Shown: positions 2,502-32,000, numbered from the stretch's first letter. The stretch: DNA of 32,000 bases from Candidatus Methanoperedens sp. (GCA_041494705.1 JBGQBI010000005.1:230199-262198); one strand, 5' to 3'. Notes: generated from the letters alone by a model not told the origin. Translations and numbers: made by a program.

Positions 2502-2510
2502 GTTATCATC

Positions 2511-3359: not shown

Positions 3360-3368
3360 AAAAACCTC

Positions 3369-4304
3369 TTAATCCGCCATTGCCCTGACAAAATCCCGTT
3401 CTGTTATGATGCCCTTAAGTTCGCCTTCTTCAAGCACTGGAAGCGAACCGACATTCTTATCAAGCATGACGCTTGCAGCCTCTCCTAAATCCACATCAGA
3501 TTTCGTAAAAATTACATCTCTTCTTATAAGAGTGCTGATGGGTACTTCAAAAACCTCTCTGGCGTTTCCGGTAACAAGCCGGTTGAACATGTCGCCGCTT
3601 CCCAGGAAACGCATAATGTCAGAAGCCGTAATTATGCCTATCAGGACATTATCCCGGATTACGGGAAGTCTCCTGAAACCATTATTTATCATGGATTTTG
3701 CTGCAATCCCGATTGACATATCGGCCGGGGCGGTTACTATATTTTTGCTCATGTATTCATCTATTGTCTTGCCCGTGATAATTCCGGATATCAGAAAAAC
3801 AAAGTCCCTTTCTGAGATGATGGATTTTACTCTCTCCTCTCCGTCAAGGATGGGAATCCCGCCGATATTTTCTTTTATCATCGTATCCATTGCATCCTTA
3901 AGCGAATCTTTTTCATTGAGCGTTACAACATTCTCTTCCATTATCTCGCTTATACTGCCGTTAACGGCTGCAAGCAGGTTTCCTTTGAACCTGTTCTTTA
4001 CTATAAGGTTTCTTTGACCGCCTCCAAGAAAATCCACAATATCCTGCGAGGTCACTATTCCTTTTAGGCGGCTGGTACCCGCATCAACCACCGGGAGTCT
4101 CCTGAAACCGTGCTTCAACATGGTCTTGACTGCCTCAATCACCGGCATCGTAGGGGGTATTGTCACAACTTCCCTTGATGCTACTGTCATTATATCGCCA
4201 GATTTTTCAGAAATCCTTGATTTAAAATCAATTGGCGCCATATTCCGCATATACCCTCTGGGGTCCTGTTGTTTTTTTTTCATGGTTATGTTGCTAAAAT
4301 TCAT
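3369..4304 (-). CDS. CBS-domain protein, four CBS motifs (gamma-AMPK/MJ1225-like architecture)
   Basis: 311 aa with four CBS repeats. GFRRLPVV/GFRRLPVI signatures are reminiscent of AMPK-gamma-like stand-alone CBS proteins. An alternative start further in (MKKK..) is possible. Confidence 0.88.
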   Translation of the reverse strand: MNFSNITMKKKQQDPRGYMRNMAPIDFKSRISEKSGDIMTVASREVVTIPPTMPVIEAVKTMLKHGFRRLPVVDAGTSRLKGIVTSQDIVDFLGGGQRNLIVKNRFKGNLLAAVNGSISEIMEENVVTLNEKDSLKDAMDTMIKENIGGIPILDGEERVKSIISERDFVFLISGIITGKTIDEYMSKNIVTAPADMSIGIAAKSMINNGFRRLPVIRDNVLIGIITASDIMRFLGSGDMFNRLVTGNAREVFEVPISTLIRRDVIFTKSDVDLGEAASVMLDKNVGSLPVLEEGELKGIITERDFVRAMAD

Positions 4305-4313
4305 AAAGCACCT

Positions 4314-5087
4314 TTAGATGAACGCTTTGATTATATCACTTCTATCAACTATACCTGCAAGTTTCCCGCCATTGACTACAGAAAGCCTCCCTACATCAAG
4401 CTTCATAAAAGCCTGTACCGCTTCCTTCAAACTCGTTTCAGGAGTTAAAGAATATGCAGGAGTGCTCATAATCTTTTCTACAGGCGGCGACATGGAAGAC
4501 CTCGTCCCCTGCTCATCCTCCCTCTCGATTCTCGCATAGCCTGCGTTGATAATATTACGCCGGGTGACCATTCCGATAAGTTTGTCATTTTTTACCACGG
4601 GCAAACCTGAAAAACCTGTTTCTTTCATGTTCAGCCAGACTTTGGCAACATTGTCCTTAGAAGAACATGTTTTTACATCGGTGGTCATTACCTCGCTTAT
4701 CTTCTTTGAAGGAATTTTATCTAAGTCAAGGTTCCTGAAAATATCAACCATGCTCAAAATACCTGCAAGCGTCATATCCTGCCCGGATTTCAATACAGGA
4801 GTGCGACCCACGCCTGCCTCTATCATCAATCTGGCAGCCTGCATCATATCCATATCAGGATATACAAACGGGAACTCAGACATGAATCCTTCAACTGTTA
4901 CATTTGATTTTGTGGAATATATGTTCAACAATTCCTTCTCATTTAATATCCCGATGACCCTGTTCTTATTATCCACCACTGGCACCGTGCGAAAATGCCT
5001 GTCCCTCATCAACTGGCGCGCATGTGTCATAAATTCTGTACCGTGAATAAAAACAGGGTTTTTGGTCATTACATTTTTTACTTTCAT
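4314..5087 (-). CDS. CBS-domain protein, four CBS motifs
   Basis: 257 aa with four CBS repeats (GILNEKEL, GILSMVDI, GMVTRRNI, GIVDRSDI). GGAG lies upstream of the ATG. Confidence 0.9.
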   Translation of the reverse strand: MKVKNVMTKNPVFIHGTEFMTHARQLMRDRHFRTVPVVDNKNRVIGILNEKELLNIYSTKSNVTVEGFMSEFPFVYPDMDMMQAARLMIEAGVGRTPVLKSGQDMTLAGILSMVDIFRNLDLDKIPSKKISEVMTTDVKTCSSKDNVAKVWLNMKETGFSGLPVVKNDKLIGMVTRRNIINAGYARIEREDEQGTRSSMSPPVEKIMSTPAYSLTPETSLKEAVQAFMKLDVGRLSVVNGGKLAGIVDRSDIIKAFI

Positions 5088-5153
5088 AGTCTCATACTCC
5101 TTTTATTGCGCATATATTTGTTACTTAAATAAAATCCCAAATTTACTGCGTCT

Positions 5154-5702
5154 TTAAGTCTCTCTGCAACTCTCACAAAGAAGTTTTCCATCTACAAGTA
5201 ACAGGGTATCAACATTATCGCCGCATTCCTCGCATATCCCACGATTGATATTTTGAGGAACCTCCATTGAAAAAACCTTCTCCCGGTGCATCTTGATGAG
5301 GTCGGAGAAAATACTGCCCATCTCGGCTGAAATCGCGATGAGGTCGGTATCCGTGACGATGCCCACGAGTTTCCCATTTTCCACAACAGGTAATCGCCTT
5401 ATCTCCATTTTCACCATCTTATGCATGGTATCGGTAACATCCTCTTCGGTATTTATGGTTATCAGGGGAGTGGTCATCAATTCTCTCATGGAAATATCCT
5501 CCGGTTTAAGATTCCTGGATACGATTTTCCTGACAATATCACGCTCTGTGATTATTCCAACCGGTTGCTTTCTATCTGTGATAATGATGCTGCCAACATC
5601 ATAGTCTAACATTTTTTTTGCTAATTTCTGGACATCACTTTTTATGTCAATGGTAACTACATCCCTGGTCATTATTTCTTTTACCGGCATCTTAACTTCC
5701 AT
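5154..5702 (-). CDS. CBS-pair protein with C-terminal zinc-ribbon
   Basis: 182 aa with two CBS motifs and then C-terminal CEEC..(16 aa)..CESC, a four-Cys ribbon. A strong SD (GGGAGGAT) sits 4 nt upstream of the ATG at 5702. Confidence 0.88.
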   Translation of the reverse strand: MEVKMPVKEIMTRDVVTIDIKSDVQKLAKKMLDYDVGSIIITDRKQPVGIITERDIVRKIVSRNLKPEDISMRELMTTPLITINTEEDVTDTMHKMVKMEIRRLPVVENGKLVGIVTDTDLIAISAEMGSIFSDLIKMHREKVFSMEVPQNINRGICEECGDNVDTLLLVDGKLLCESCRET

Positions 5703-19152: not shown

Positions 19153-20151
19153 ATGACTATTGCAATTGAAGTCAAAGAGCTTGTTAAGGTTTATGACGGC
19201 AAGGTCAGGGCTTTAGACGGTGTTAATCTAAAAGTTAAAGCCGGAGACGTTTTTGCCCTGCTGGGCCCCAATGGTTCGGGCAAAACTACGTTGATGCGGA
19301 TTTTAACCACCCAATTTAAACCCACTTCCGGTGAAGCATTTATTTTCGGATTCGATGTTGCAAGGAGGGATGCCGAAGTCAGGAAAGTTATCAGCTACGT
19401 TCCCCAGGAGACGAGCGTCTGGACTGATATCAGCGGCTATGAGAATCTTCTCATATACGCCAAAATTTATGGGCTTCAATCGAGAGATAGGAATAAGGTT
19501 ATCCGGGATGCACTGGAGGGTATGGGCCTGGATACTGTTGCGGACAACCTTGTCAAGACATACTCTGGCGGCATGATCAGAAGACTTGAGATGGCATGCG
19601 CCATGCTTATAAGACCTAAGATTTTATTTCTGGATGAACCTACATTGGGTCTTGATCCTACTGCCAGAAAGGCTGTCTGGGAGAAGCTGACATCTTTTAA
19701 GAAGGAATATGATACAACAGTATTTTTTAACACACATTACATGGATGAAGCTGACCTCTACTCTGATGAGATAGCTATAATTGATAGAGGCAAGATGGTC
19801 AAGTTCGGTACGGCTGATGAACTTAAACATTCCATCAGGAGAGATGTCGTTCAATTCAGTTTAAACAATCATATTGTTGATGAGAGTGTTTTAAAGAGTA
19901 TCAGGGATTTAGATTTTGTCAACGACATTATTATTAATAATTCGGAACTCAGCGTAGTTGTCGTTGATGCAGAAACTGCGTTGCCTGTTGTTATGGAGAT
20001 CCTGAGAAACGGGGGCATATCTGTAAAGAAAATATCTATGACCAGACCGACCCTGGATGATGTTTTCTTAAAATATGCCGGGGCTATTTCTTTGGATAGC
20101 GGCGGTATTCGCGAGAACAAGCAAATCAGGAGCATGAGCGGGAAGGGATAG
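19153..20151 (+). CDS. ABC transporter ATP-binding protein (ABC-2/DrrA-like, with C-terminal extension)
   Basis: 332 aa. Walker A is GPNGSGKTT, the signature is YSGGMIRRLEMA and Walker B is ILFLDEPTLGLD. The extra about 90-aa C-terminal domain is typical of DrrA/CcmA-like ATPases. Confidence 0.9.
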   Translation: MTIAIEVKELVKVYDGKVRALDGVNLKVKAGDVFALLGPNGSGKTTLMRILTTQFKPTSGEAFIFGFDVARRDAEVRKVISYVPQETSVWTDISGYENLLIYAKIYGLQSRDRNKVIRDALEGMGLDTVADNLVKTYSGGMIRRLEMACAMLIRPKILFLDEPTLGLDPTARKAVWEKLTSFKKEYDTTVFFNTHYMDEADLYSDEIAIIDRGKMVKFGTADELKHSIRRDVVQFSLNNHIVDESVLKSIRDLDFVNDIIINNSELSVVVVDAETALPVVMEILRNGGISVKKISMTRPTLDDVFLKYAGAISLDSGGIRENKQIRSMSGKG

Positions 20152-20159
20152 ATTTGACA

Positions 20160-20924
20160 ATGACAGATTCTTTAAGGGAAATGTTTGCTATGATAGAACT
20201 TGAGCTGCGAAGGCTCAGTCATGACAGAACCGAATTATACACCAGGGCAATACAACCGATTTTATGGTTAGCTGTTTATGGAACTGTCATGAGCCATGTT
20301 AAGGCTATACCTACTGATGGGATACCTTACCTTGATTATATTACTCCTGGCATTTTGCTGCAATCTACCATATTTGTATCGGTCTTTTATGGTTTAACTA
20401 TTGTATGGGAAAGAGAGACCGGTATTTTAAAGAAGCTTCTTGTGGCTCCTGCTTCCAGGTATGCTACTGTTATAGGCAGGTCAATAGCTTCGGGCGTCAG
20501 GGCGATTTTCCAGGTTCTCATAATTATACCTGTGGCGCTGCTTATTGGAGTTGATTTTCTGTTTAACCCTCTATACTTCATTATGGCAATTTTAATAATA
20601 TTCTTTGTTTCAGGCGGGTTTGCCGCCATCTCTATACTTATAGCATCTTTAATGAAAACAAGAGAGAGGTTCATGGGCATAGGCCAGGCTCTTATCATGC
20701 CGCTTTTCTTTGTCAGTAATTCCCTGTATCCAATCAAACTGATGCCCACAATCTTACAAAACTTAGCCTATTTTAATCCTTTAACCTACGCGGTGGATGC
20801 TGTGAGAGGCCTGATGATAAGCGGGGACATTAGCAACCTTCTGCCCGATATTGCGGCAATTGCAATTTTCGATGTAATAATGTTTGCGGCGGCTTCAATA
20901 AGCTTCAGGAAAATCATAGAATAA
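20160..20924 (+). CDS. ABC-2 type transporter permease
   Basis: About 254 aa with six predicted TM helices and the ABC-2 membrane pattern. It directly follows the ATPase. A TTG at 20154 is an alternative start. Confidence 0.85.
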   Translation: MTDSLREMFAMIELELRRLSHDRTELYTRAIQPILWLAVYGTVMSHVKAIPTDGIPYLDYITPGILLQSTIFVSVFYGLTIVWERETGILKKLLVAPASRYATVIGRSIASGVRAIFQVLIIIPVALLIGVDFLFNPLYFIMAILIIFFVSGGFAAISILIASLMKTRERFMGIGQALIMPLFFVSNSLYPIKLMPTILQNLAYFNPLTYAVDAVRGLMISGDISNLLPDIAAIAIFDVIMFAAASISFRKIIE

Positions 20925-20988: not shown

Positions 20989-21516
20989 ATGCTCAATAGA
21001 CTGATGGTTCAAATGAAACTCAAATTAAATATCGGAAAGCATAATATTTTGATATCGGCTATTGTTTTGATCATCTCAGTGCTCCTGCTTATAAACCGGC
21101 TCCTGGCGACAGGCCCTGTTCAGCTCATTTTGGAGAACGGCCAGGCAGTTCCGATAGAAGGGGTCTCGTATTTTTCACTGAATGAGGTGTTGTTCCTGAT
21201 TATAACTGCATGGTTTGGAGGTATGTCATTCCTTTATATATTCCTGCTCTCAAACGAAAGCGAAGCGCCCGCATTAAAAGAGAATACAGCAGCCGAGAAT
21301 AAAAGTACAGCCGTGTTGGCAGCCAATCTGCTTATTGGTGATGAGAAGATATTGCTACAGAAAATCATCGATGGCGGTACGATATTACAGAGGGAACTTA
21401 TTTTAAAGACTGGCTTTTCGGAGCCAAAAGTGAGCAGGCTTCTTGATAAGCTTGAGAAAAGAGGATTGATAATACGCCAGAGGGATGGGATGGGAAACAA
21501 GGTATTGATAAAATAG
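20989..21516 (+). CDS. Membrane-associated winged-helix transcriptional regulator (COG2512-like)
   Basis: 175 aa with two hydrophobic TM segments (ILISAIVLIISVLLLI; VLFLIITAWFGGMSFLYIFLL). The C-terminal MarR/IclR-like wHTH is ILQRELILKTGFSEPKVSRLLDKLEKRGLIIRQRDGMGNKV. Confidence 0.7.
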   Translation: MLNRLMVQMKLKLNIGKHNILISAIVLIISVLLLINRLLATGPVQLILENGQAVPIEGVSYFSLNEVLFLIITAWFGGMSFLYIFLLSNESEAPALKENTAAENKSTAVLAANLLIGDEKILLQKIIDGGTILQRELILKTGFSEPKVSRLLDKLEKRGLIIRQRDGMGNKVLIK

Positions 21517-21528
21517 CTATGTAAGACC

Positions 21529-21595
21529 TGATTTCATTTTTTCGAAACTGCTTTCAAGACAATTTCAGGGAATTCATATATGGTCTTTCATCTTA
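21529..21595 (+). promoter_or_regulatory. Conserved promoter/operator block, copy A (upstream of PepSY-like gene 1)
   Basis: CTGATTTCATTTTTTCGAAACTGCTTTCA[AGACAATTTCA]GGGAATTCATATATGGTCTTTCATC. It shares about 55 nt with copies B and C and carries an 11-nt internal duplication. The TATA-like CATATAT lies about 26 nt upstream of the ATG at 21604. Confidence 0.6.
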
Positions 21596-21603
21596 TGGAA
21601 ACT

Positions 21604-22002
21604 ATGAACAAATTGAAAGTATTCGCACTGGTTATGATCGGTCTGCTGATTATTGCCACAGGGCTGCGGTTTACCTATTTGGAGGTGCATGAATTCCCGC
21701 TTAATGAGACACAAAAGATTTTTGCAATAAACACAGCAAAGGATGGGTTAAGAGATGAAATCGGGGGTAACAATTATAATACTACTGTCCAGGATCGAGG
21801 ACGGACAATGTCTACCGCAAACGGAGATAAAAAGGTCGTACGTGTTGTTCTCACCCGGGAAAATATAACCATAACTGCTCTTGTTGACATGGATACAGGC
21901 AGTGTAGTGGAAAAAACCAGGGTGGAATCGAGCGGATGGATGACAGAGTATCAGGATCAAAATCCAAAGCGCTGGGGGCATCAGCGTTTATTCAACAGGT
22001 GA
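21604..22002 (+). CDS. Small N-terminally anchored PepSY-like domain protein (paralogue 1)
   Basis: 132 aa from MNKLKVF. It has a TM anchor, then LNETQKIFAIN..., then VVRVVL...ALVDMDTGSVVE, which fits the PepSY pattern. It is about 60% identical to the 30319-30720 product. The start was chosen by paralogue alignment; the track start at 21580 lies inside the conserved non-coding block. Confidence 0.7.
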   Translation: MNKLKVFALVMIGLLIIATGLRFTYLEVHEFPLNETQKIFAINTAKDGLRDEIGGNNYNTTVQDRGRTMSTANGDKKVVRVVLTRENITITALVDMDTGSVVEKTRVESSGWMTEYQDQNPKRWGHQRLFNR

Positions 22003-22038
22003 TACCCCGCGCCTGTGGGATAGAATAACGTATCAAAT

Positions 22039-22947
22039 ATGAAAGTTCGAATATTCCTTTTCCTGCTGATAATCCTGATAACAGGAGCGCATGCACAGGA
22101 GACGATAAACGAGGAGCAGGTATTGCTCAATGGTTATGTAGACAATTCCGGGAACGTGCTTCTGACAGGTTATGCCACGCCCGGATCTTTGTCTTATATG
22201 CCTTTCTTAAATGAAACGCAGTACACTTTTGATAACAATACTAACCAGCTTTATACAGTTACAGACGCACTGACATCAAAGAGCGCGGATATATGGTCGC
22301 TTAACTTCTCTTTGGAAGGTTACTATTCAGACTATTCTGTAACATTTGATTTTCCTGCCGGTTCTGAGGTCACGAAGATTGATGTACCACCTGAACTCAA
22401 TTACCAGGTACAGGTCAAGGCGGACTCGCTTACTTTATCCATTCATGGATACAGGGTAATATCACCATGGATTAAAGTGGAATACAAACTGCCAGCTAGT
22501 GTGCCAGCTCAATCAAGAAGCCCAATTACTACCGTGCTCATAGCATTGCTTGTTATTGTGTCGATCGCAGGAACTAGCTTCGCGTTTTATAGACGTAGAA
22601 TGCAGAAAACAACAGCCATCCCTGAAAAGAAAGAATCCCTCAACCAGGAAACTGAGGTAATCTCGGTAATGAAACCTGAAACAAAAGAAATCCGTATCAC
22701 CGGCGAAATGCAAAAGGTCATAGATACTCTTTCCGATAACGAGAAGGCGATAATAAGCATACTGCTAAGAAACGGTGGTTCTGCAACGCAGGCTGACATC
22801 CGGTATGAGACAAGGATACCAAAATCTTCACTTACAGGCATAATAAACGCTCTAAAGAGGAAAAATATAATAAAAAAGCATGAATACGGAAGGACGAACG
22901 TTATCGAACTTTCGGAATGGTTTTTATCTGAAAAAGAACTCAAATAA
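22039..22947 (+). CDS. Membrane-tethered winged-helix regulator with signal peptide and extracellular domain (COG2512-like)
   Basis: 302 aa. It has a signal peptide (LIILITGAHAQ), an extracytoplasmic domain of about 150 aa, a TM helix (ITTVLIALLVIVSIAGTSFAF, then YRRR), and a cytoplasmic wHTH (SDNEKAIISILLRNGGSATQADIRYETRIPKSSLTGIINALKRKNII). Confidence 0.7.
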   Translation: MKVRIFLFLLIILITGAHAQETINEEQVLLNGYVDNSGNVLLTGYATPGSLSYMPFLNETQYTFDNNTNQLYTVTDALTSKSADIWSLNFSLEGYYSDYSVTFDFPAGSEVTKIDVPPELNYQVQVKADSLTLSIHGYRVISPWIKVEYKLPASVPAQSRSPITTVLIALLVIVSIAGTSFAFYRRRMQKTTAIPEKKESLNQETEVISVMKPETKEIRITGEMQKVIDTLSDNEKAIISILLRNGGSATQADIRYETRIPKSSLTGIINALKRKNIIKKHEYGRTNVIELSEWFLSEKELK

Positions 22948-23021
22948 AGCTTATTTGATACCAATGTTCTGCATCGAAATTAAGTATCGTTCAATCCAAG
23001 AGGGAATTTGAGGTTATCAAA

Positions 23022-23654
23022 ATGAAAATAACGAATAAAATAGCAATATTATTTGCTGCATCTTTGCTGGTTCTGGCACCAATGGCAGTAACTGTGTTTG
23101 CTCAGCCCTCAGGTGTGGGCACTGGTAAAGAAAGAGGATACGGAGCACCGCATAACCCTATCGGAACGTTAAAACCGAATGTTGTGCCTATACTTATGGG
23201 ACACGGGTTTGCACTGAATCCATCAGATGAATCCCAGTATCACGTTCTGGATGTGACGGCTATGAAAGTCAGCAACGCATCCCAAAGTCAGACCAGAGCT
23301 GATATCAGATTCGCAGGTCAGCCGTATGGTCTCACCATAACTGGCTTTACCGACCAATCACTTACTGGAAACATAGAGACGCTGCCTCCGCGCGGGACGA
23401 ACCAGACGGGCTTCACCCCAACTACAGTAGGAAGCATATCGCTTTCAATGTCTAAATACGAAGGGGTAATGCTTGCAACAGGTACTATAACCATGAACAG
23501 TACGAATTATAATGTACTACTGACATCTCCCGTTATAGCTTCAGGTGGCGAACAGCCCAACTTCAATGGAACGATCAGACAGCACAGCTTTAATGCAACA
23601 TTAAGAAAGGGCAACTTCAATGGAATGTTCGGACCACACAATTCTAAACGATGA
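23022..23654 (+). CDS. Secreted protein of unknown function, N-glycosylation-sequon rich
   Basis: 210 aa with the signal peptide MKITNKIAILFAASLLVLAPMAVTVFAQ and five N-x-S/T sequons. The C-terminal tail has a repeated NFNG motif. GAGG lies upstream. I recognise no family. Confidence 0.65.
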   Translation: MKITNKIAILFAASLLVLAPMAVTVFAQPSGVGTGKERGYGAPHNPIGTLKPNVVPILMGHGFALNPSDESQYHVLDVTAMKVSNASQSQTRADIRFAGQPYGLTITGFTDQSLTGNIETLPPRGTNQTGFTPTTVGSISLSMSKYEGVMLATGTITMNSTNYNVLLTSPVIASGGEQPNFNGTIRQHSFNATLRKGNFNGMFGPHNSKR

Positions 23655-23682
23655 AACACAGAAAATGATAAAGTAAGAGTAT

Positions 23683-23714
23683 TGGATCCCCGGCAGGGGA
23701 TTCATTTTATTTAT
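23683..23714 (+). terminator. Hairpin plus T-run terminator after the secreted-protein gene
   Basis: UGGAUCCCC-GGCA-GGGGAUUCA forms a 9-bp stem including one G-U pair, which favours the + strand. It is followed directly by TTTTATTTAT. Confidence 0.55.
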
Positions 23715-23950
23715 CCCCCTTGGCACGAAATGATAACGCTTGTGAATAAAAATGAAATAATAAACGTAATAAAAGATTACATACAGAGGAAGTCCGGTGT
23801 TTAATTAAAGCATATGTACCCCTCCGTACCACCACCTCTCTGGGCTTCCATTACTTCTAATATACGGCAACAGAACGGATTGGAGAGAATGATAATAGGA
23901 ATCTCGACACGAATTATAACGATACGAAAAAGAAAATAAGGAGAAACAAA

Positions 23951-24400
23951 ATGAACAGGAAAACAGCAATCATATTACTTTTATTAACATCAGTAATTCT
24001 TGCAGGAGCACCGGAGGCTTTTGCAAGGCCACAATATTTTAACGCGCTCACCGCAGTATATGGTAGTGATTATTCATGTGGCACCTGCCATGTGAATCCC
24101 AATGGCGGCGGACCACGCAACTCTTATGGAACGTTATTTGAGAGCCAGCCTGGCCATAGGGCTGATCCGGGTGCAGCCCTGACAGCAATAGGGTCGCCGT
24201 CCTCATCAACTGCAACCCCACTCATTACGCCAACAGCCACAACGACCCCGGCACCAACAGATACTCCAGTTGATACTGCAACTACGGAGGTTACAACCGT
24301 GACGCCATCAGCGACACCCGCAGCACCAGGATTCGGAATTGTGTTATCCCTGGTCGGATTATTTGCAATGATTCTTCTGGCAAAGCGGAATGATAAATGA
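23951..24400 (+). CDS. Small monoheme c-type cytochrome with Thr/Pro-rich stalk and PGF-CTERM anchor signal
   Basis: 149 aa. It has a signal peptide (..AGAPEAFA), a single CXXCH (CGTCH) in a domain of about 60 aa, a T/P-rich linker of about 45 aa, and C-terminal PGFGIVLSLVGLFAMILLAKRNDK (PGF + TM + basic tail). A strong AAGGAG RBS is present. Confidence 0.75.
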   Translation: MNRKTAIILLLLTSVILAGAPEAFARPQYFNALTAVYGSDYSCGTCHVNPNGGGPRNSYGTLFESQPGHRADPGAALTAIGSPSSSTATPLITPTATTTPAPTDTPVDTATTEVTTVTPSATPAAPGFGIVLSLVGLFAMILLAKRNDK

Positions 24401-25104
24401 TGGAAACCATAATGGAACTGCAGGATGTCTGGAAAATTTACAAGATGGGTGAAGTGGAAGTTCCAGCTCTGAGAGGAGTAAGTGTAAAAATAAAGAAAGG
24501 AGACTTTGTGGCTATCATAGGTGCCTCGGGAAGCGGCAAGTCCACAATGATGAACCTGATAGGCTGCCTGGATATTCCTTCCAGAGGAAGCCTCTACCTC
24601 CGATCGCAAGACATCAGCACATTAAGCGAATCAGACCTTGCCTCATTCAGGGGAAAGACTATCGGTTTTATTTTCCAGCAATATAACCTGATCCAGTCAA
24701 TGTCTGCTTTTGAGAACGTGAAGCTTCCATTGGAATTCCTGGAATATGATGACCAAAAAGCGGCAAACAGGGCAATAGAAATACTGACACTGGTAGGCTT
24801 GAATAACATGATGCATCATCGGCCGACACAGCTTTCCGGGGGTCAGCAGCAGAGAGTGTCTATAGCAAGATGCCTGGCTGGCGACCCTGAGATAATCCTT
24901 GCGGATGAGCCTACCGGAGCACTCGACAGTGTTACAGGCAGGGAAGTCCTGGATATGCTTCACAGATTGTGGGAAGAGCAGGGAAAAACGATCATAATGG
25001 TCACTCATGACCTTAATCTGGCCAAATATGCTCACACAACAATTGAACTGAAAGACGGAGAGATTTTGAAAATATCTGAAAATAATGAGGTAAATAAAAA
25101 ATGA
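24400..25104 (+). CDS. ABC transporter ATP-binding protein, MacB/LolD/FtsE type (module 1)
   Basis: Walker A GASGSGKST, Q-loop, signature LSGGQQQRVSIARCL, Walker B IILADEPTGALD, H-loop VTHD. This is the same family as M. jannaschii MJ0796. The start at 24400 aligns with the paralogue; the ATG at 24397 is an alternative. It overlaps the cytochrome stop. Confidence 0.92.
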   Translation: METIMELQDVWKIYKMGEVEVPALRGVSVKIKKGDFVAIIGASGSGKSTMMNLIGCLDIPSRGSLYLRSQDISTLSESDLASFRGKTIGFIFQQYNLIQSMSAFENVKLPLEFLEYDDQKAANRAIEILTLVGLNNMMHHRPTQLSGGQQQRVSIARCLAGDPEIILADEPTGALDSVTGREVLDMLHRLWEEQGKTIIMVTHDLNLAKYAHTTIELKDGEILKISENNEVNKK

Positions 25105-26465
25105 AAAAAATAATATTTCCGGTTTTGATAATACTGGTATTGACAGCTTACACTCCCGCAGTTTATGCGGGTTTAGCAGGTTCAACAGTACTATCAGTAA
25201 GCCTTGCGAACTATGACCCTAATCCTGCTATCGCAGGAAATACCGTGGATGTACGTATAGGTATCCAGAATATCGGCGGTACGAGTACTAACGATCTTAT
25301 GATGGAAGTTATACCACAGTATCCTTTTGAGCTTGTACCAGGTGAAAACGCAGTTCAGGAGGTAGGAATAGTTCAACCTTATCAGACGAGTGATCCTACT
25401 GCAAATATGAAAGTCGTACTGTACCATATGCAGATAAACAGGAACGCTCCGGCAGGAAGTTACCAACTCAAAGTTAAGTATTATGAGGCGGGTTCAACCG
25501 ATGTGACCGAGCAAATCCTGTCCCTTGATGTGAAGAGCAAAGAAAGCGCTGAAGTGATACACATTGGCCAGACGATGCTCGTTCCGGGAAAGCAAAGCAG
25601 CTTAATATTCACAATCAATAATGTCGGGAATGCCCCCCTCCGGGATTTGACTTTCAGCTGGGCGAATGATGATAAGATAATTCTTCCAGTCGGGAGTGAC
25701 AATACCAAATATATCAAGTACATTGATATTGGCAATGGCAGTGACCTGGAATACCAGGTGATGGCAGATACTAATGCACAGCCGGGATTATACAAACTGA
25801 ACTTATACCTGACTTATGCAGACTCGATGTCAAACCAAACGAAAACAATAAGCACATTTGCCGGCGTGTATGTTGGCGGAGGAACGGATTTCGATGTGGC
25901 ATTCTCAGATAATTCAAACAGCCAGATGTCTTTCACCGTTGCCAATATCGGAAGCAATCCTGCAAATTCAGTATCTGTGGCGATTCCCGATCAGCCAGGC
26001 TGGAGTGTAAGCGGCTCAAATTCAGTCATCATAGGGAATCTGAACAAAGGAGACTACACAGTTGCAAGCTTCAAGTTGCAGTCATCAATAAGTAATATGA
26101 CTTCCCAGAATAGAGCAGCCAGAAACAATACCAACGTCCAGGGACGTTCTATGCAAGGACCAGCAAATAGCTCATCTGATACGGTACACATGCAAATCGC
26201 CTATACTGACACCATGGGACAAAGAAACGTCGTCGAAAAACAAGTCAAAATTGGATCTCAAAATATGGCATCTGCAACCGGGCAAACGGCTATGGGACGA
26301 GGAGGAGCCACACAACAAACAAGTGTACTCTCTAATAACATGCTGTATATCTTCGGAATAGTTGTGCTTGTTGGCGCAGTTGTAGTCCATAGGAAGTACA
26401 AGAGCCGCAAAATGATTAATCCCGATTTCAAGATAAAGGATTTACTCAAAAGCGAGAAGAAATAA
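25101..26465 (+). CDS. Surface protein with repeated CARDB/COG1361-like beta-sandwich domains and C-terminal TM anchor (module 1)
   Basis: 454 aa with a signal peptide and repeated blocks of the form P.pG....v.v.i.N.G...l.dl. A Q/N/S-rich segment is followed by a TM helix (LYIFGIVVLVGAVVV) and a basic tail. The start overlaps the ATPase stop (ATGA). Confidence 0.7.
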   Translation: MKKIIFPVLIILVLTAYTPAVYAGLAGSTVLSVSLANYDPNPAIAGNTVDVRIGIQNIGGTSTNDLMMEVIPQYPFELVPGENAVQEVGIVQPYQTSDPTANMKVVLYHMQINRNAPAGSYQLKVKYYEAGSTDVTEQILSLDVKSKESAEVIHIGQTMLVPGKQSSLIFTINNVGNAPLRDLTFSWANDDKIILPVGSDNTKYIKYIDIGNGSDLEYQVMADTNAQPGLYKLNLYLTYADSMSNQTKTISTFAGVYVGGGTDFDVAFSDNSNSQMSFTVANIGSNPANSVSVAIPDQPGWSVSGSNSVIIGNLNKGDYTVASFKLQSSISNMTSQNRAARNNTNVQGRSMQGPANSSSDTVHMQIAYTDTMGQRNVVEKQVKIGSQNMASATGQTAMGRGGATQQTSVLSNNMLYIFGIVVLVGAVVVHRKYKSRKMINPDFKIKDLLKSEKK

Positions 26466-26483
26466 TAACTCCTGCGGGTCAAA

Positions 26484-27731
26484 ATGAAACTAAATAAGTG
26501 CTTCAAACATGCGTTTAATATGGTGCTGCACAGCAAGCTGCGAAGCTGGCTGACTATAACTGGCATAGTTATAGGTGTTGCCGCAGTGATTGCTATTGTA
26601 TCTATAGGAGACGGGATGCAGCAAACGCTGAATGCACAATTGAATGCTCTTGGCGGAGATATCGTGACAATCACAGCCGGCGCTGAACGCGGTGGAAGCA
26701 TGTTTGGTATGAGAGGCGGCGGGGGAGGAGGTGGTTCTTCTGGAGGAGCCCAGGCAACGACCAAAGAAATAGTGTTAGGCAGGAGTGATCTCCAGGCATT
26801 GAAGGGTATACCTGATATTGCGCTTATCGACACAAATATCAGAGAGAGTGTGAATATATCCTATCTTGGCAAAACAGGTAAAGTGTCTGTAACAGGCGTA
26901 GACCAGACGGTTTGGTCTAAGATTACAACAACTACAATAAAAACAGGCCGGATGCTTGATTCTGCTGACCAGAACGTCATAGTTATCGGAGGAAATCTCG
27001 CATCTTCTTATTTCTCCCAGCCTGTCGGGATAAATAAGATGGTAACGATAAACGGCAATGCTTTCAGGGTTGTGGGAATTCTTGATGACCAGACCACCAG
27101 TGTTTACATGCCGATCCAGATGGCATACCAGGTGATGCCAGACAAAACAAATGGTATCTATGATACATTTGTTGTTAAGATTAGAGACCAAAACCAGTTA
27201 GATTTAGTAATCACGGAAATCCAGAACAAACTTATGATTTCAAGACACGTCACTCAAAATACAATGGATTTTTCAGTCACTTCAAGGAAGGAAATGCAGC
27301 AGGCAAGAGCAGCTACGATGAGTTCAATGAGTAATTTTCTTCTTGCAATTGCAGCGGTTTCATTAATTGTCGGTTCTATCGGGATTGCAAATACCATGTT
27401 CACTTCTGTCCTTGAAAAGACTAAAGAAATCGGGATAATGAAAGCCATTGGCGCGCGCAATCCTGATATCCTGCTCATATTCCTGTTCAATGCAGGATTT
27501 ATCGGGCTCGTTGGAGGGGTCATAGGCATAATCCTTGGAACAATTCTTTCAGGTTTCTTGCCTGCGCTCATGGGAGGGGGTCTTCCCATGGCAAGAGGGG
27601 GCACAATAGTGACATTGAACTCGATAATTATGGCACTATCAGTATCGGTTACAGTAGGAATACTTGCAGGAATAATTCCTGCGTACCAGGCATCGAAATT
27701 GAGGCCTGTTGATGCCCTGAGATACGAATAG
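26484..27731 (+). CDS. MacB-type ABC permease (FtsX domain with large extracytoplasmic domain; module 1)
   Basis: 415 aa. TM1 (LTITGIVIGVAAVIAIVSIG) is followed by a loop of about 230 aa, then three C-terminal TM helices with the FtsX pattern (EKTKEIGIMKAIGA...). It ends with YQASKLRPVDALRYE. Confidence 0.9.
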   Translation: MKLNKCFKHAFNMVLHSKLRSWLTITGIVIGVAAVIAIVSIGDGMQQTLNAQLNALGGDIVTITAGAERGGSMFGMRGGGGGGGSSGGAQATTKEIVLGRSDLQALKGIPDIALIDTNIRESVNISYLGKTGKVSVTGVDQTVWSKITTTTIKTGRMLDSADQNVIVIGGNLASSYFSQPVGINKMVTINGNAFRVVGILDDQTTSVYMPIQMAYQVMPDKTNGIYDTFVVKIRDQNQLDLVITEIQNKLMISRHVTQNTMDFSVTSRKEMQQARAATMSSMSNFLLAIAAVSLIVGSIGIANTMFTSVLEKTKEIGIMKAIGARNPDILLIFLFNAGFIGLVGGVIGIILGTILSGFLPALMGGGLPMARGGTIVTLNSIIMALSVSVTVGILAGIIPAYQASKLRPVDALRYE

Positions 27732-27803
27732 TGGAGCCGTGAACTTTGTTCCAGGTATTTTCATACCTTACTTAATAAGGACTTATTCCTGGAGAGCTAA
27801 GGC

Positions 27804-27858
27804 ATTATTTCATTTTTCTGGAACTGATTTCAGGGAATTATTATATGGTCTTTCATCT
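27804..27858 (+). promoter_or_regulatory. Conserved promoter/operator block, copy B (orphan: no PepSY-like gene follows)
   Basis: ATTATTTCATTTTTCTGGAACTGATTTCAGGGAATTATTATATGGTCTTTCATCT, about 88% identical to copy C. TTTCA pentamers at 27808, 27828 and 27851 have the same 20/23-nt spacing as in copy C. Confidence 0.55.
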
Positions 27859-27877
27859 ATGACATATCTTAGAGAAC

Positions 27878-27903
27878 CATCAAGCATCAAATGATGCTTG
27901 ATG
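27878..27903. repeat. Perfect 12-bp palindrome just downstream of orphan block B
   Basis: CATCAAGCATCA-AA-TGATGCTTGATG. Confidence 0.6.
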
Positions 27904-28050
27904 ATAGTTGGGATACAAATAATGTATTGATTGTAAAAGACTTACCCCGGTGGATTCTCTGCGATTTGCAATAGGAAAAAATGTGCTAAACTCATAATAA
28001 TTTACTAAGAACTTTATACAATAAGGACTAATAATAGAATAGGGGAAAAT

Positions 28051-28935
28051 ATGCAAGAAATAGGAGTCGGCGATATTCATACGCACACAATGTATTCAGG
28101 GTTCTCCAAATATTCGTTTTTATCATATCCGGATAGTGTGACAACTCCCAGGACCTCAATCAAGGTTGCCGAAAAACTCGGGCTCGATGTTCTCTGTATA
28201 ACGGATCACAACACGATTAAAGGCGCAATTGAAGCCCGGAAGTACAACAAGGAACTGGTGGTGATAGGTGAAGAGATATCTTCTCGCGACGGTGAAATAT
28301 TAGGATTGTTCCTCCAGGAGCAAGTCAATCCCGGCTTAAGCGCCGAAGAAACGATAGAACAAATACACGGGCAGGATGGGATAGCCATTGCCCCGCACCC
28401 TTTTAGTGCGCATTGTTCCTGTGTTGGCAAAAAAATGAACACATTAAGATTTGATGGGATAGAAGTATTCAATGCATTGCACAGGGATGGATATTCAAAC
28501 GCTCTTGCACTTGAAAATTGTAACGGGCATGCGAAGCTTGGCGGAAGTGACGCACATGCAAGTTACATGATAGGAAATGGTTATACTCTATTTCATGGAA
28601 GTTCCCAGGAAGATTTAAGGGCTGGGATAAAGAATAAGGAAACGATTTATGGAGGAAAAGTAGCATCTCTTATGGAATTTATCAATTATGGTGCCCGGGT
28701 AGCTTATGAATCGTCAAAGACAATCCTGAAGGTCAATGGGGTAGATTGCCCCATGTCTGCCAGAATATCCAGGGTAAGAAATTCACGCAAAATTTCATAT
28801 TTGCTGGGTTCTATCGCATATGCATTTTCACCTTTGCCTGTTGTTTGTACCCTTCTTGGCGATAGATTGCTGCAGCATAAAGGACGAAAGATTTGGAGAG
28901 ATACACACCGCTATCGTTTTACCAATGAGAGATGA
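28051..28935 (+). CDS. PHP-domain metal-dependent phosphoesterase with hydrophobic C-terminal segment
   Basis: 294 aa. DIHTHTMYS (HxH), LCITDHNT, IAIAPHPF and GGSDAH form the PHP motif series. The C-terminal part has YLLGSIAYAFSPLPVVCTLLG. Confidence 0.8.
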   Translation: MQEIGVGDIHTHTMYSGFSKYSFLSYPDSVTTPRTSIKVAEKLGLDVLCITDHNTIKGAIEARKYNKELVVIGEEISSRDGEILGLFLQEQVNPGLSAEETIEQIHGQDGIAIAPHPFSAHCSCVGKKMNTLRFDGIEVFNALHRDGYSNALALENCNGHAKLGGSDAHASYMIGNGYTLFHGSSQEDLRAGIKNKETIYGGKVASLMEFINYGARVAYESSKTILKVNGVDCPMSARISRVRNSRKISYLLGSIAYAFSPLPVVCTLLGDRLLQHKGRKIWRDTHRYRFTNER

Positions 28936-28941
28936 TTTAAA

Positions 28942-30036
28942 TTGGCACATGTATTTGTAAGTCCACTCTCATGGGGATTGGGTCATGCCACCAGGGATAT
29001 TCCAATAATCAGGGAACTTAAAAATCACGGTCATGAAGTAACTATTGCAACGAGTCGAGGCGCCTTTATATTATTAAAAAAAGAATTTCCGGATTGTGAT
29101 TTCATTTATTTTGAGGACTATCCTGCGCCGTACAGTTCAACAAAATATTTCCTGCCAAAATTTTTCGCAAATATTCCGGTTCTGGTTAAAGCCCTGGCAG
29201 ATGAAAAGAAAAGGACGGATCACCTCCTGTCAAAAAACAACTATGATGCTGTCATAAGTGATAACCGGCTTGGCGTTTATTCAAAAAAGATACCCTCTTT
29301 CTTCATTTCGCACCAGTTGCGCTTTAGCGTTCCTTATTACATCAGGCCTGCAGAGACCGTTTCCCAATATGTCAATGAATATTTCCATAAAAAATTCGAC
29401 CGTGTGATTGTTCCTTCCAATAGCCCTGATGAAAATGGTAATTGTCTCAGCGGGAAATTGTGCAAGTCAACCCGGAAAGCAACGAATATGAAGGCATACT
29501 ATGCAGGAATTCTGTCGAGTGTTCAAAAAATGGATGTATCTGAAGACCTTGATTTCCTGATAATTATTTCAGGTCCCGAACCGCAGCGAAGCAAACTGGA
29601 AGAGATAATTCTCAAGCAGGTACAGGAGCTTCCCGGGGAGAAAATGGTGATTCTCGGACGACCTCAGGATAATTTCGAAAAAAAGCTAGATAAGTGGACT
29701 ACTGTTAAATCATATGTAACTGAGGAAGAAAAGATTGTACTCATGAATCGTGCGAAATTCATAATAAGCAGGTCGGGTTATACGACAATGATGGACATTG
29801 CGGAACTTGATAAAAAACATGGTGTCTTTATACCCACTCCCGGTCAGACAGAACAGGAATACCTGTCCCAGTATTATGAAGAGCAGGGGTGGTTTTATTC
29901 AAAAAGCCAGTATAAATTAGAGATTCTCAAAGACATTGAGAAGGCGAAGGAATATAGTGGCTTTCCTCCCATGGCGAAGTCAAAGGATAATGTTAAACGG
30001 CTGTATAAAGAAGTATTTGCACAATACTTAGATTGA
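28942..30036 (+). CDS. GT-B fold glycosyltransferase (MurG/GT28-like, MJ1255/TIGR00661-like)
   Basis: 364 aa with a TTG start. The N-terminal glycine loop is SWGLGHATRDIPIIREL, and the C-terminal half has RSGYTTMMDIA...GVFIPTPGQTEQEYLSQ, a nucleotide-sugar binding pattern. Confidence 0.65.
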   Translation: MAHVFVSPLSWGLGHATRDIPIIRELKNHGHEVTIATSRGAFILLKKEFPDCDFIYFEDYPAPYSSTKYFLPKFFANIPVLVKALADEKKRTDHLLSKNNYDAVISDNRLGVYSKKIPSFFISHQLRFSVPYYIRPAETVSQYVNEYFHKKFDRVIVPSNSPDENGNCLSGKLCKSTRKATNMKAYYAGILSSVQKMDVSEDLDFLIIISGPEPQRSKLEEIILKQVQELPGEKMVILGRPQDNFEKKLDKWTTVKSYVTEEEKIVLMNRAKFIISRSGYTTMMDIAELDKKHGVFIPTPGQTEQEYLSQYYEEQGWFYSKSQYKLEILKDIEKAKEYSGFPPMAKSKDNVKRLYKEVFAQYLD

Positions 30037-30091
30037 ACAATCATCTTACTTTACCTCTGGCAAGCGATGCAAATATACCTGCAAAACATAG

Positions 30092-30120
30092 AGCAGCGAA
30101 AACAATGAACGCTGCTTTTT
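30092..30120 (+). terminator. Hairpin plus T-run after the glycosyltransferase gene
   Basis: AGCAGCG (30092-30098) - 11 nt - CGCTGCT (30110-30116), followed by TTTT. Confidence 0.4.
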
Positions 30121-30251
30121 CGCTTCCCAGGAAAAGAGAATAGTTTTCAGATACAATCAGGATAGATATGCTGTTGTAGTTGGCGATGACGGGAAAGTGG
30201 AAGCATGGAAAAAGTTAGGAAAAGGTATTACTGAAAAAGGTTAGCGCAAGC

Positions 30252-30306
30252 ATGATTTCATTTTCTTAAAACTGCTTTCAGGGAATTCTTATATGGTCTT
30301 TCATCC
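30252..30306 (+). promoter_or_regulatory. Conserved promoter/operator block, copy C (upstream of PepSY-like gene 2)
   Basis: ATGATTTCATTTTCTTAAAACTGCTTTCAGGGAATTCTTATATGGTCTTTCATCC. The TATA-like TTATAT lies about 28 nt upstream of the ATG at 30319, which suggests a leaderless or very short leader mRNA. Confidence 0.6.
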
Positions 30307-30318
30307 TTGTGAGTGCGT

Positions 30319-30720
30319 ATGAACATCTGGAAAACACTGGCAATAGTTATGATTGCCCTGCTGATTATTGCCATCGGAATCAGATTTATCGATATAGAAG
30401 GCCATACATTCCAGCTTAACGAGACACAAAAAACCTTCGCAATAAACTCAAGCCTGGATGCGCTGAAAAACGAGATAGGGAATAACAACTATAATATTAC
30501 AGTCCAGGATCACGGCATGATAATATCTACCGCAAACGGAGATAAAAAGGTCGTTCGTGTGGTTTTTACTAACGGCAATGTAATCTTAACTGTTCTCGTT
30601 GATATGGATACAGGCAGTGTTGTGGAAAAGAGCAAAGTGGAACATAGTGGATGGATGACAGAATATCAAAATCAAAATATGGAACGCTTGGAACATAAAC
30701 GATTGCTCAGGGCGACATAA
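30319..30720 (+). CDS. Small N-terminally anchored PepSY-like domain protein (paralogue 2)
   Basis: 133 aa from MNIWKTL, a paralogue of the 21604-22002 product. They share STANGDKKVVRVV, LVDMDTGSVVEK and SGWMTEYQ. The stop overlaps the ATPase start by 1 nt (TAATG). A GTG at 30313 is an alternative start. Confidence 0.7.
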   Translation: MNIWKTLAIVMIALLIIAIGIRFIDIEGHTFQLNETQKTFAINSSLDALKNEIGNNNYNITVQDHGMIISTANGDKKVVRVVFTNGNVILTVLVDMDTGSVVEKSKVEHSGWMTEYQNQNMERLEHKRLLRAT

Positions 30721-31397
30721 TGGAATCCATAATGGAACTGCAGGATGTCTGGAAAATTTATCGCATGGGTGAGTTTGACGTACCTGCACTTGCGGGAATA
30801 GACCTGACGATCAAAGCTAGGGAGTTTGTGGCTATAACAGGACCCAGCGGATGCGGCAAGTCAACGATGTTAAATATGATAGGCTGCCTGGACATGCCCA
30901 CCCGGGGAAAGGTTTTGCTTGAAGGCAAGGACATATCGGAATTCAAAAGTAATGAACTGGCGCGTGTAAGAGGTAAAAAAATCGGGTTCATATTCCAGAC
31001 TTTCAACCTGTATCCAACCCTGACAGCCCTTGAGAATATCAGGCTGCCGATGAGGATTCATGAATTTCCTGAAGGAGTTATAGAAGAGACGTCAATGAAT
31101 TTACTTAATACGGTCGGGCTGGCTGAACGCGGCTCTCATTTCCCGGCGCAGTTATCAGGCGGGCAGCAGCAGAGGGTTGCAGTCGCAAGGGCGCTCTCAA
31201 CAGGCCCTTCTATTCTCCTGGCAGATGAGCCTACAGGGAACCTGGATACAAAATCAGGAGGCGAAGTAATGGATGTTTTTAAACGTTTAAACAGCGAGGG
31301 ATTGACTATAGTTATGATAACGCATGATCCGAGGATTGCAGGATATGCAGGAAGAGTTGTGAAAATGCTTGATGGAAAAATAACAGGTGAAACATGA
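30720..31397 (+). CDS. ABC transporter ATP-binding protein, MacB/LolD/FtsE type (module 2)
   Basis: 225 aa. Walker A GPSGCGKST, signature LSGGQQQRVAVARAL, Walker B LLADEPTGNLD, H-loop ITHD. Confidence 0.92.
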   Translation: MESIMELQDVWKIYRMGEFDVPALAGIDLTIKAREFVAITGPSGCGKSTMLNMIGCLDMPTRGKVLLEGKDISEFKSNELARVRGKKIGFIFQTFNLYPTLTALENIRLPMRIHEFPEGVIEETSMNLLNTVGLAERGSHFPAQLSGGQQQRVAVARALSTGPSILLADEPTGNLDTKSGGEVMDVFKRLNSEGLTIVMITHDPRIAGYAGRVVKMLDGKITGET

Positions 31398-32000
31398 ATA
31401 AATTCAATTTAATTTTGATAATCGTATCGACATTACTGATTGCGCAGGTTGCCTCCGCGGGCTATCTTGTGACCGAAAGCGCACCGGTTTATCCCGGAGA
31501 TACGACTTATGTCTATTTCGTGGTAAATAATACAGGATTTGGTCAATTTCTGAATGACGTAAAAGTCAGGCTAGAGCCCAAAGATAACGCCTCGGCTAAT
31601 GCAGTGACTATACTTGATGATGTGTATTCGCTGGGAACTATAGAGAATTGGGGCGACCAGAGAACCGCAAGGTTCAAAATCCATGTAAACCCTGATGCAG
31701 CAGAAGGCGATTATTATTTCAATGTATATACTACCTACAGAGGCCAGCAGATAAGTAGCAATACCCCGGCACCAATGGTAACGAGCGAACTCAAGAACCA
31801 GATATTGACCATTAAAGGGAAGCCCTTAATAGTGCTGACTAATTCAACGCTTGGCATCGTAGAGCCGATGAGTGTTAATAAGGAAACGCTAAAGTTTAAA
31901 AATACAGGCACAGGCACAGTACAGAACGCCGTAGCTGAAATAGACCTTACCGGCACCGGGGGAAGCAGCAAATCATCCTTTTCAATTCTTGGCGCAGGAA
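31394..32000 (+). CDS. CARDB/COG1361-like surface protein (module 2), 3' end outside the window
   Basis: This ORF is absent from the supplied ORF track, presumably because no stop falls in the window. I translated it by hand and the frame is open from the ATG at 31394 (ATGA overlap with the ATPase) to 32000. It begins MNKFNLILIIVSTLLIAQVASA (signal peptide), then YPGDTTYVYFVVNNTGFG...LKFKNTGTGTVQNAV, beta-sandwich blocks like those of the 25101-26465 product. Confidence 0.65.
   Translation, partial: MNKFNLILIIVSTLLIAQVASAGYLVTESAPVYPGDTTYVYFVVNNTGFGQFLNDVKVRLEPKDNASANAVTILDDVYSLGTIENWGDQRTARFKIHVNPDAAEGDYYFNVYTTYRGQQISSNTPAPMVTSELKNQILTIKGKPLIVLTNSTLGIVEPMSVNKETLKFKNTGTGTVQNAVAEIDLTGTGGSSKSSFSILGAG

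Follow-up and report, generated by a model that had tools for sequence, protein, structure and literature searches.

A MacB/FtsX-type ABC operon of archaea with a beta-sandwich partner and membrane-linked winged-helix regulators: a candidate envelope-protection system

Gene content of the locus

The 32,000-nucleotide stretch of DNA described here (the window; JBGQBI010000005.1:230199-262198, numbered from its first letter) comes from the chromosome of Candidatus Methanoperedens (anaerobic methanotrophic archaea, ANME-2d). It matches a metagenome contig of 2.07 Mb, and the proteins that it encodes share 64-90% identity with those of Candidatus Methanoperedens; its flanks hold ordinary chromosomal genes for ketol-acid reductoisomerase, phosphoenolpyruvate synthase, phosphoglycerate kinase and 3-hydroxy-3-methylglutaryl-CoA reductase. 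The subject of this work is a three-gene operon, here called the triad, which lies in two versions (modules 1 and 2) between position 20989 and the end of the window. The triad encodes an ATP-binding cassette (ABC) ATPase of the LolD/MacB type, a protein, here called the partner, that spans the membrane once and has three beta-sandwich domains (CARDB/COG1361), and a permease made of MacB_PCD and FtsX domains. Near it are genes for membrane-tethered winged helix-turn-helix (wHTH) regulators, for small anchored proteins and for a secreted protein, together with three copies of a conserved block (Table 1).

An earlier note on this DNA, made from the sequence alone, had read the region as a duplicated, promoter-sharing envelope module. 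Every open reading frame (ORF) that it listed is present at its coordinates, and the gene order, gene overlaps, terminator and three block copies that it described were all borne out by the ORFs, the junctions, the hairpin and comparison with shuffled sequence. The junctions consist of TGATG at 24400 and TAATG at 30720, leading into the two ATPase genes, and of ATGA overlaps at 25101 and 31394.

Table 1. Features of the triad region and its surroundings (window coordinates; aa, amino acids; TM, transmembrane segment)
Feature	Coordinates	Strand	Evidence and remarks
TMwHTH1, two-TM membrane-tethered wHTH regulator (DUF7343)	20989..21516	+	Pfam DUF7343 36.1 bits (cut-off 27.6)
Block A, putative promoter/operator (long form)	21522..21593	+	TTTCA at 21532, 21552, 21563, 21586
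Small protein 1, 132 aa, ectodomain with N-terminal anchor	21604..22002	+	no Pfam match; PepSY unproven
ectoTMwHTH2 (DUF7343)	22039..22947	+	Pfam 56.1 bits (cut-off 27.6); predicted signal peptide-ectodomain-TM-wHTH
Secreted 210-aa protein, 5 N-x-S/T sequons	23022..23654	+	no Pfam or NCBIfam match
Terminator-like hairpin, then TTTTATTTAT	23683..23704	+	hairpin and T-run, 3' of the secreted-protein gene
Monoheme CxxCH protein, 149 aa, putative PGF-CTERM anchor signal	23951..24400	+	Pfam PGF-CTERM 24.0 (cut-off 18.8)
ABC ATPase 1 (LolD/MacB subfamily)	24400..25104	+	ABC_tran 6.9e-33
Partner 1, 454 aa	25101..26465	+	three beta-sandwich domains between a signal peptide and a C-terminal TM; short cytoplasmic tail
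Permease 1 (4 TM)	26484..27731	+	MacB_PCD 9.2e-31 and FtsX 8e-18
Block B (short form)	27795..27858	+	TTTCA at 27808, 27828, 27851
11-bp perfect hairpin	27879..27905	+	within ~90-nt segment 27873-27960 after block B
PHP-domain phosphoesterase, C-terminal hydrophobic segment	28051..28935	+	downstream of block B
Glycosyltransferase after the PHP gene	28942..30036	+	weak Glyco_transf_4 match
Block C (short form)	30243..30306	+	TTTCA at 30256, 30276, 30299
Small anchored protein 2, 133 aa	30319..30720	+	65% identical to small protein 1
ABC ATPase 2	30720..31397	+	matches ABC_tran; 53% identical to ATPase 1
Partner 2, cut at window end	31394..32000	+	400 aa in L001 (16294-17496)

The ATPase, partner and permease

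For comparison, one genome per species was scanned with an alignment of the partner protein, which returned 169 relatives; 80 loci were kept, all from uncultured organisms (L numbers below stand for these and for other loci compared). They come from Methanoperedens, from other Methanosarcinales (ANME-2, ANME-3) and from many Woese-, Nano-, Aenigm-, Iain- and Nanohaloarchaeota, and, although species representatives, they are phylogenetically non-independent. The order ATPase, partner, permease on one strand is found in 80/80 of these loci, and the few genes that are absent coincide with contig ends. The composition and synteny of the triad are direct observations, and the proposal that its three genes form a unit held wherever the contig allowed. 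Literature searches for the triad, for COG1361 with COG0577, for DUF7343, and for Methanoperedens with MacB/FtsX returned nothing relevant, in line with the view of the earlier note that the role of the triad in archaea had not been established by experiment; the families to which its proteins belong are already named in databases.

The nearest PDB match of the ATPase is MJ0796 of Methanocaldococcus jannaschii (4.7e-68 over residues 6-224), a kinship already suspected, followed by MacB, LolD and BceA. Its top NCBIfam models are MacB, LolD, DarD and FtsE, all of which score below their equivalog cut-offs. Permease 1 matches MacB_PCD with 108 bits (residues 21-248) and FtsX with 65 bits (residues 288-406), and its TM-like segments (residues 23-41, 284-302, 329-347 and 380-398) place a large extracytoplasmic domain between TM1 and TM2. 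Its nearest PDB matches are 5xu1_M, the pneumococcal MacAB-like permease, and MacB. A glycine-rich loop (GGSMFGMRGGGGGGGSSGG) lies within the MacB-type ectodomain at residues ~66-92 (window 26680-26760), and a similar loop is present in permease 2; we know of no such loop in bacterial MacB. No membrane-fusion adaptor of the MacA/HlyD type was found among the recurrent neighbours of the 80 loci or among the window ORFs.

The partner is less easily classified. Partner 1 has marginal Pfam matches to CARDB (24.6, cut-off 22.7) and NEW3 (24.7, cut-off 24.4), both confined to domain 3; many of its homologues carry precomputed CARDB or NEW3 matches, and NCBI uses the name 'COG1361 S-layer family'. 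In the predicted model (confidence score, pLDDT, 66) the signal peptide is followed by three beta-sandwich domains, and these by a disordered linker, a TM helix and a short tail. A PDB search by sequence found no solved relative, and the fold matches are generic tandem Ig/MG domains. In 60 homologues with identities below 62%, conservation is 0.76 and 0.79 for domains 2 and 3, which are next to the membrane, as against 0.57 for the distal domain 1. Because the position of its gene is invariant, the genes overlap and the membrane-proximal domains are conserved, the partner is read as a probable stoichiometric subunit of the complex. Its tail (26400-26465) contains a semi-conserved motif, (R/K)KYKxxKLxDPxFK(I/L)KD(L/I)F, in many, not all, Methanosarcinales and DPANN orthologues; this motif could contact the ATPase or the permease.

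Module 2 is complete beyond the window, where the 400-aa partner is followed by permease 2 (417 aa). Two copies of the module are thus present, as had been claimed, but they are not the products of a recent duplication. Since the modules are only 53% (ATPase), 41% (permease) and 24% (partner) identical to each other, and since permease 1 shares 57-73% identity with its DPANN orthologues, modules 1 and 2 are ancient paralogues that represent two old subfamilies residing in one genome. The identities between Methanoperedens and DPANN loci (L024-L083) are high for such a distance (ATPase 60-78%, permease 57-73%, partner 44-56%), which suggests horizontal transfer of the whole operon.

Membrane-linked regulators

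Both wHTH regulators of the window pass the DUF7343 cut-off and have the topologies previously assigned to them. TMwHTH1 is predicted to contain two TM helices (TM-like segments 20-38 and 67-85) N-terminal to the wHTH domain, with an external loop of 26 residues. Its gene is directly upstream of the conserved block in window copy A and in L005, L015, L092, L095 and L096, and a gene for a DUF7343 protein is directly upstream of the small-protein gene in L085, L086 and L099. The second regulator, ectoTMwHTH2, is matched by tblastn over its full length (61-87% identity) in 12 Methanoperedens-type loci and over the wHTH part alone in L068 and L079. Its ectodomain was compared with the partner, the small protein and the secreted protein, and no homology was found.

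Among the 59 loci with at least 2 kb of sequence upstream of the ATPase gene, 48 have a wHTH gene of one of two families no more than 3 kb upstream; a wHTH gene lies downstream of the triad in 3 of 51 loci. When only the distant loci are counted, the upstream figure is 38/46. Co-occurrence of wHTH genes with the triad had been predicted, and gene order across these loci establishes the local linkage. The regulators themselves differ. The DUF7343 type is found in ~19 loci. The HTH_45 type is found in 31 loci and is paired in 31/31 with a divergently transcribed gene for a 221-aa polytopic membrane protein. In the L022-L083 group (for example, L022:5656-7222 and L045:4801-7234), the divergent gene for this polytopic protein overlaps a 94-aa HTH_45 gene.

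The small anchored protein

Two paralogous small proteins follow blocks A and C. Their most likely start codons are ATG 21604 and ATG 30319, rather than 21580 and 30313 as first assigned. An AlphaFold2 model of small protein 1 (pLDDT 77) shows a TM helix and then two short helices packed against a six-strand sheet. All 141 proteins of the close family (identity of 60% or more) come from Methanoperedens, and a profile search of 1.84 billion representative sequences recovered 63 clusters. In independent contexts, including 5 metagenome loci recovered through the conserved block, the small-protein gene opens a four-gene operon that continues with the triad. Two relatives, 27% and 54% identical, adjoin a DUF7343 gene and have a complete triad downstream; another, at 25% identity, also adjoins a DUF7343 gene, and its contig ends 219 nt into the next gene. 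The combination of DUF7343 regulator, small protein and complete triad is present in L044.

The small proteins had been called PepSY-like, a label that could not be upheld. Neither window protein has a Pfam match or a significant PDB profile match, and among 59 relatives Pfam PepSY is found once, weakly (E 1.3e-3). The best Foldseek hit of small protein 1 has an E value of 0.15, and the PepSY-containing YpeB scores E 0.41 with a probability of 0.87, none of which is significant. What resemblance there is consists of the helix-on-antiparallel-sheet topology and a (V/I)D-x-D-(S/T)-G-x-V motif, and one homologue is named PepSY by UniRef. Two homologues, P0143 and P0168, carry the precomputed Pfam annotation PF28201.1, which may be a newly created family for the small protein.

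The conserved block

The 30-nt core of the block occurs three times in the window, as against 0.00 expected from shuffles. An alignment of 18 distinct instances shows TTTCA elements with spacings of 20 and 23 nt that flank a TATA-like box, the centre of which lies 26-28 nt before the start codon. In block A the TATA-like sequence TCATATATG is centred near 21578, 26 nt before ATG 21604. Long and short forms of the block differ by an 11-nt indel, and the long form contains an extra TTTCA copy. An ATG within the block is out of frame or followed by a stop in most copies, and its frame is not conserved.

Exact block matches in metagenomes precede a small-protein gene in 9/9 cases, with TMwHTH1 directly upstream in three of the nine, and all 7 of the longer contigs run on into an ATPase gene. 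Conversely, small-protein genes that were found through their protein, and for which upstream DNA was available, carry the block in 5/5 cases. The core TATATGGTCTTTCATC is unchanged in L015, whose small protein is only 63% identical; judged in this way, the block is better conserved than the coding sequence beside it. In the distant loci L044, L098 and L099 the same layout, with a GTTTCA-N6-TGAAAC palindrome, lies between the DUF7343 gene and the small-protein gene. A structured RNA was considered and rejected, as no Rfam family is present in the window and the predicted folding of A (z -0.66) and C (z +0.60) is no better than that of shuffled sequence. Because of its conservation, its layout, the spacing of its TATA-like box and this lack of an Rfam or RNA-fold signal, the most plausible reading of the block is that of a promoter combined with operators, probably for the adjacent DUF7343 regulator.

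Block B had been regarded as an orphan copy. It occupies the same position between permease 1 and the PHP gene in three other species (L004, L007, L010), and therefore it is not an orphan. The PHP gene itself is 3' of the permease in L004, L007, L009, L010, L084, L092 and L095, and the glycosyltransferase gene is kept after it in L004, L007 and L010. The segment with a perfect hairpin that follows block B is present in the window and in L007 and absent from L004 and L010; the hairpin is single-copy in the window and was rejected as a repeated element.

The claim that both ABC modules share this promoter did not hold. The module 1 ABC operon lies behind the terminator and has no block of its own. 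A search ahead of the cytochrome-ATPase 1 operon for another shared promoter motif gave only k-mers that proved to be coding sequence, and such a motif was rejected.

Lineage-specific genes and neighbouring genes

The nine genes that had been grouped with the triad do not form one conserved set. Association of the small protein with a DUF7343 regulator extends to relatives of 25-54% identity, with a complete triad in 2/3 cases, and that part of the proposal stands. On the other hand, ectoTMwHTH2, the secreted 210-aa protein and the cytochrome are found in only ~12-14 Methanoperedens loci. The gene for the secreted protein follows ectoTMwHTH2 in 11 Methanoperedens-type loci. The cytochrome, present in 13 Methanoperedens loci in 1-3 copies and absent from L016, L018, L019 and every non-Methanoperedens locus, is optional. 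Its description as a monoheme protein agrees with the sequence: a single CGTCH, predicted to be a c-type haem motif, lies at residue 43 after the signal peptide. The C-terminus, a candidate PGF-CTERM signal, ends ...PGFGIVLSLVGLFAMILLAKRNDK; it passes the Pfam PGF-CTERM cut-off and scores 20.2 with TIGR04126, below the cut-off of 24.5.

In most other lineages, the front end of the operon is formed by the HTH_45 regulator, the 221-aa membrane protein and a secreted helical protein. The last is found upstream of the triad in 25 loci outside Methanoperedens, where a Cys-rich lipoprotein is sometimes present as well (7 loci). The helical protein has 170-190 aa, repeated 'DYxAWK' and 'LTEExF' motifs and Gly/Met/His-rich tails. 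Kinship with CpxP/Spy/ZraP was considered and rejected: Metal_resist matches weakly in 1/17, and there is no PDB match. Close strains also differ in the genes that they carry. In L004 (2990-3210) TMwHTH1 runs straight to ATPase 1, with no small protein, second regulator, secreted protein or cytochrome, and in L005 (1205-1422) and L006 the block is kept and the small-protein gene is lost, except for a few first codons.

Two other groups of window genes may be mentioned. Directly upstream of TMwHTH1 (19153-20924) is an unrelated ABC exporter pair, a DrrA-like ATPase that carries the DrrA C-terminal domain and an ABC-2 permease, which is preceded by an AsnC-type regulator gene and is kept in the same place in L005 and L007. 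On the minus strand at 1719-5702 are five successive genes for proteins composed only of CBS domains, four with 4 repeats and one with 2.

A model for the locus and its alternatives

The reading favoured here, with a probability of roughly 0.55, is that the locus encodes a type VII (MacB/FtsX-family) ABC device for protection of the envelope, which is inducible and under the control of membrane-linked wHTH regulators. Each machine would consist of the LolD/MacB ATPase, the four-helix permease with its large MacB-type extracytoplasmic domain and the dedicated partner. By analogy with MacB, FtsEX, LolCDE and YbbAP, ATP hydrolysis in the cytoplasm would move the ectodomain of the permease, and this movement would be passed on to the conserved membrane-proximal domains 2 and 3 of the partner, while the variable domain 1 would face the surface layer (S-layer). 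The likeliest job of such a machine would be inducible protection of the envelope, in which harmful or misplaced amphiphilic molecules are cleared from the outer face of the membrane. In Methanoperedens, the two-TM DUF7343 regulator would bind TTTCA half-sites upstream of and just downstream of the TATA box, and the block would drive the small anchored protein and whatever comes after it. The targets in the window would be the second regulator and the secreted protein (block A), the PHP-glycosyltransferase pair (block B) and the whole module 2 operon (block C). The small protein, as the first gene of the regulated operon, may act as a feedback co-sensor. We infer the contacts between partner and permease, the substrate and the pairing of regulator with DNA.

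Several points weigh against this model. It does not account for the control of the module 1 ABC operon, which lacks a block and lies behind a terminator. A strict TTTCA-N5-7-TGAAA palindrome shows no general enrichment upstream of triads (3 occurrences across all loci, as against 2.4 expected); the TTTCA/TGAAA motif is a feature of those loci that have both a DUF7343 regulator and a small protein. The preference of wHTH genes for the upstream side (Fisher p ~9e-17) is only indicative, because the species-level loci are phylogenetically non-independent and the p value overstates the evidence. The accessory genes vary between lineages and so give no single functional clue, and the structural model of the partner is of only moderate confidence, with generic fold matches.

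The machine could instead be a plain MacB-type exporter whose cargo is a drug, an antimicrobial peptide, a bacteriocin or a metal, with the beta-sandwich protein a co-expressed surface protein and no working subunit, an explanation that is unlikely. The closest characterised relatives are the efflux or resistance pumps MacB, Spr0694-0695 (5xu1) and BceA, inducible local regulators are typical of resistance pumps, and some of the secreted neighbours have Met/Gly/His-rich tails or Cys-rich repeats, with a weak Metal_resist match in 1 of 17. However, a bystander would not be expected to have its gene between those for ATPase and permease at every locus, with start/stop overlaps in the window, or to conserve its membrane-proximal domains so strongly across phyla. 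It has also been considered that the triad is a Lol-like machine which extracts or positions proteins of the envelope, lipid-anchored (PGF-CTERM) or secreted, such as the cytochrome, with the partner as a ladder towards the S-layer. LolD and LolC/E models do match the ATPase and permease, and the cytochrome gene overlaps the start of ATPase 1 (TGATG) and precedes the triad in its 13 Methanoperedens loci. But the Lol models score far below their cut-offs, no LolA-like gene recurs among the neighbours of the 80 loci, and the cytochrome is missing from L016, L018, L019 and all loci outside Methanoperedens; this role is improbable.

Sensing might also be the main function, as in Bce systems, with the ABC machine and the small protein reporting transport or envelope damage to the tethered regulator. 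In the regulated operon the small-protein gene always comes first, DUF7343 adjoins it in relatives whose small proteins are 25-54% identical (2/3 of these cases have a complete triad after it), and the 26-residue external loop of TMwHTH1 is too small for an obvious ligand-binding domain. Most lineages, however, do without the small protein and use HTH_45 with a separate membrane protein. There is little chance that sensing is the chief role, and a sensory function would be compatible with the envelope-protection model rather than exclusive of it. The block, finally, might be a recombination scar or a miniature mobile element with no regulatory role, given that three copies lie within 9 kb, that an 11-nt indel separates the long form from the short one and that the genes after the block vary by strain, the small gene being missing in L005 and L006. 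Against this, the orientation of the block and its distance to the next start codon are constant, different species have it at orthologous positions, terminal inverted repeats are absent, and the same motif layout is found between DUF7343 and small-protein genes in distant lineages; such an origin is very improbable.

The envelope-protection model can be taken further, though doubtfully. The triad and its membrane-linked wHTH regulator might together be the first described archaeal module for sensing and responding to envelope stress, in which a MacB-type machine pushes an Ig-like stalk that reaches the S-layer, and a small anchored or secreted helical first-gene product feeds the state of the envelope to a tethered, TTTCA-binding factor. 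If this were true, retention of the system in many reduced DPANN genomes would point to an important role at the cell surface, possibly in cell-cell contacts.

Comparison with known systems

In type VII ABC systems, ATP hydrolysis in the cytoplasm is thought to act on an extracytoplasmic partner (PMC5985334, PMC7668044, PMC12646458). The triad resembles MacAB-TolC and Spr0693-0694-0695 (5xu1) in its LolD/MacB ATPase and in its four-TM permease, whose ectodomain is MacB_PCD and whose C-terminal domain is FtsX. It differs from MacAB-type pumps in that its ATPase and permease are separate polypeptides, and in that it has a single-pass beta-sandwich partner instead of a membrane-fusion adaptor and outer-membrane duct. 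The pairing of a MacB/FtsX-type complex with one dedicated extracytoplasmic protein is shared with FtsEX-EnvC/PcsB/CwlO, LolCDE-LolA and YbbAP-TesA (PMC7668044, PMC12646458). In contrast to those systems, the fold of the triad partner is unrelated, being neither a coiled coil, a hydrolase nor a LolA barrel, and the NCBIfam models for FtsX and Lol proteins fall far below their cut-offs on triad proteins. Archaea have neither peptidoglycan nor a Lol pathway.

BceAB-BceRS is similar in that a MacB-family ABC system stands beside a membrane-embedded, probably envelope-sensing regulator that switches the operon on (PMC9169098, PMC11009047). Here, however, the permease has 4 TM rather than 10, and the regulator is an archaeal wHTH protein (two-helix DUF7343, or HTH_45 with the 221-aa protein), with no histidine kinase. 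Membrane-bound one-component regulators of ABC resistance genes, such as BcrR and those of the ToxR/CadC type, follow a logic similar to that of the tethered wHTH proteins. The small protein is like PepSY proteins (PF03413; YpeB) in topology and motif and differs in having no significant Pfam or fold match. MJ0796, the closest solved relative of the ATPase (PDB 1f3o, 1l2t), has been studied as an isolated ATPase only, and no description of its membrane partners or biological role was found in the literature searched.

To our knowledge, only the type VII ABC systems of bacteria are understood, and in these each partner is tied to peptidoglycan, lipoproteins or the outer membrane. Archaea have none of the three. 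The triad offers a widespread archaeal version, strictly constant in gene order, whose partner is of a new class, and its presence in many small DPANN genomes suggests that the system is not dispensable. It also offers the partner domains most likely to touch the pump, two alternative membrane-linked arrangements of regulators and a short candidate operator. Thus, the question of what a MacB-type machine does under an S-layer becomes approachable by experiment.

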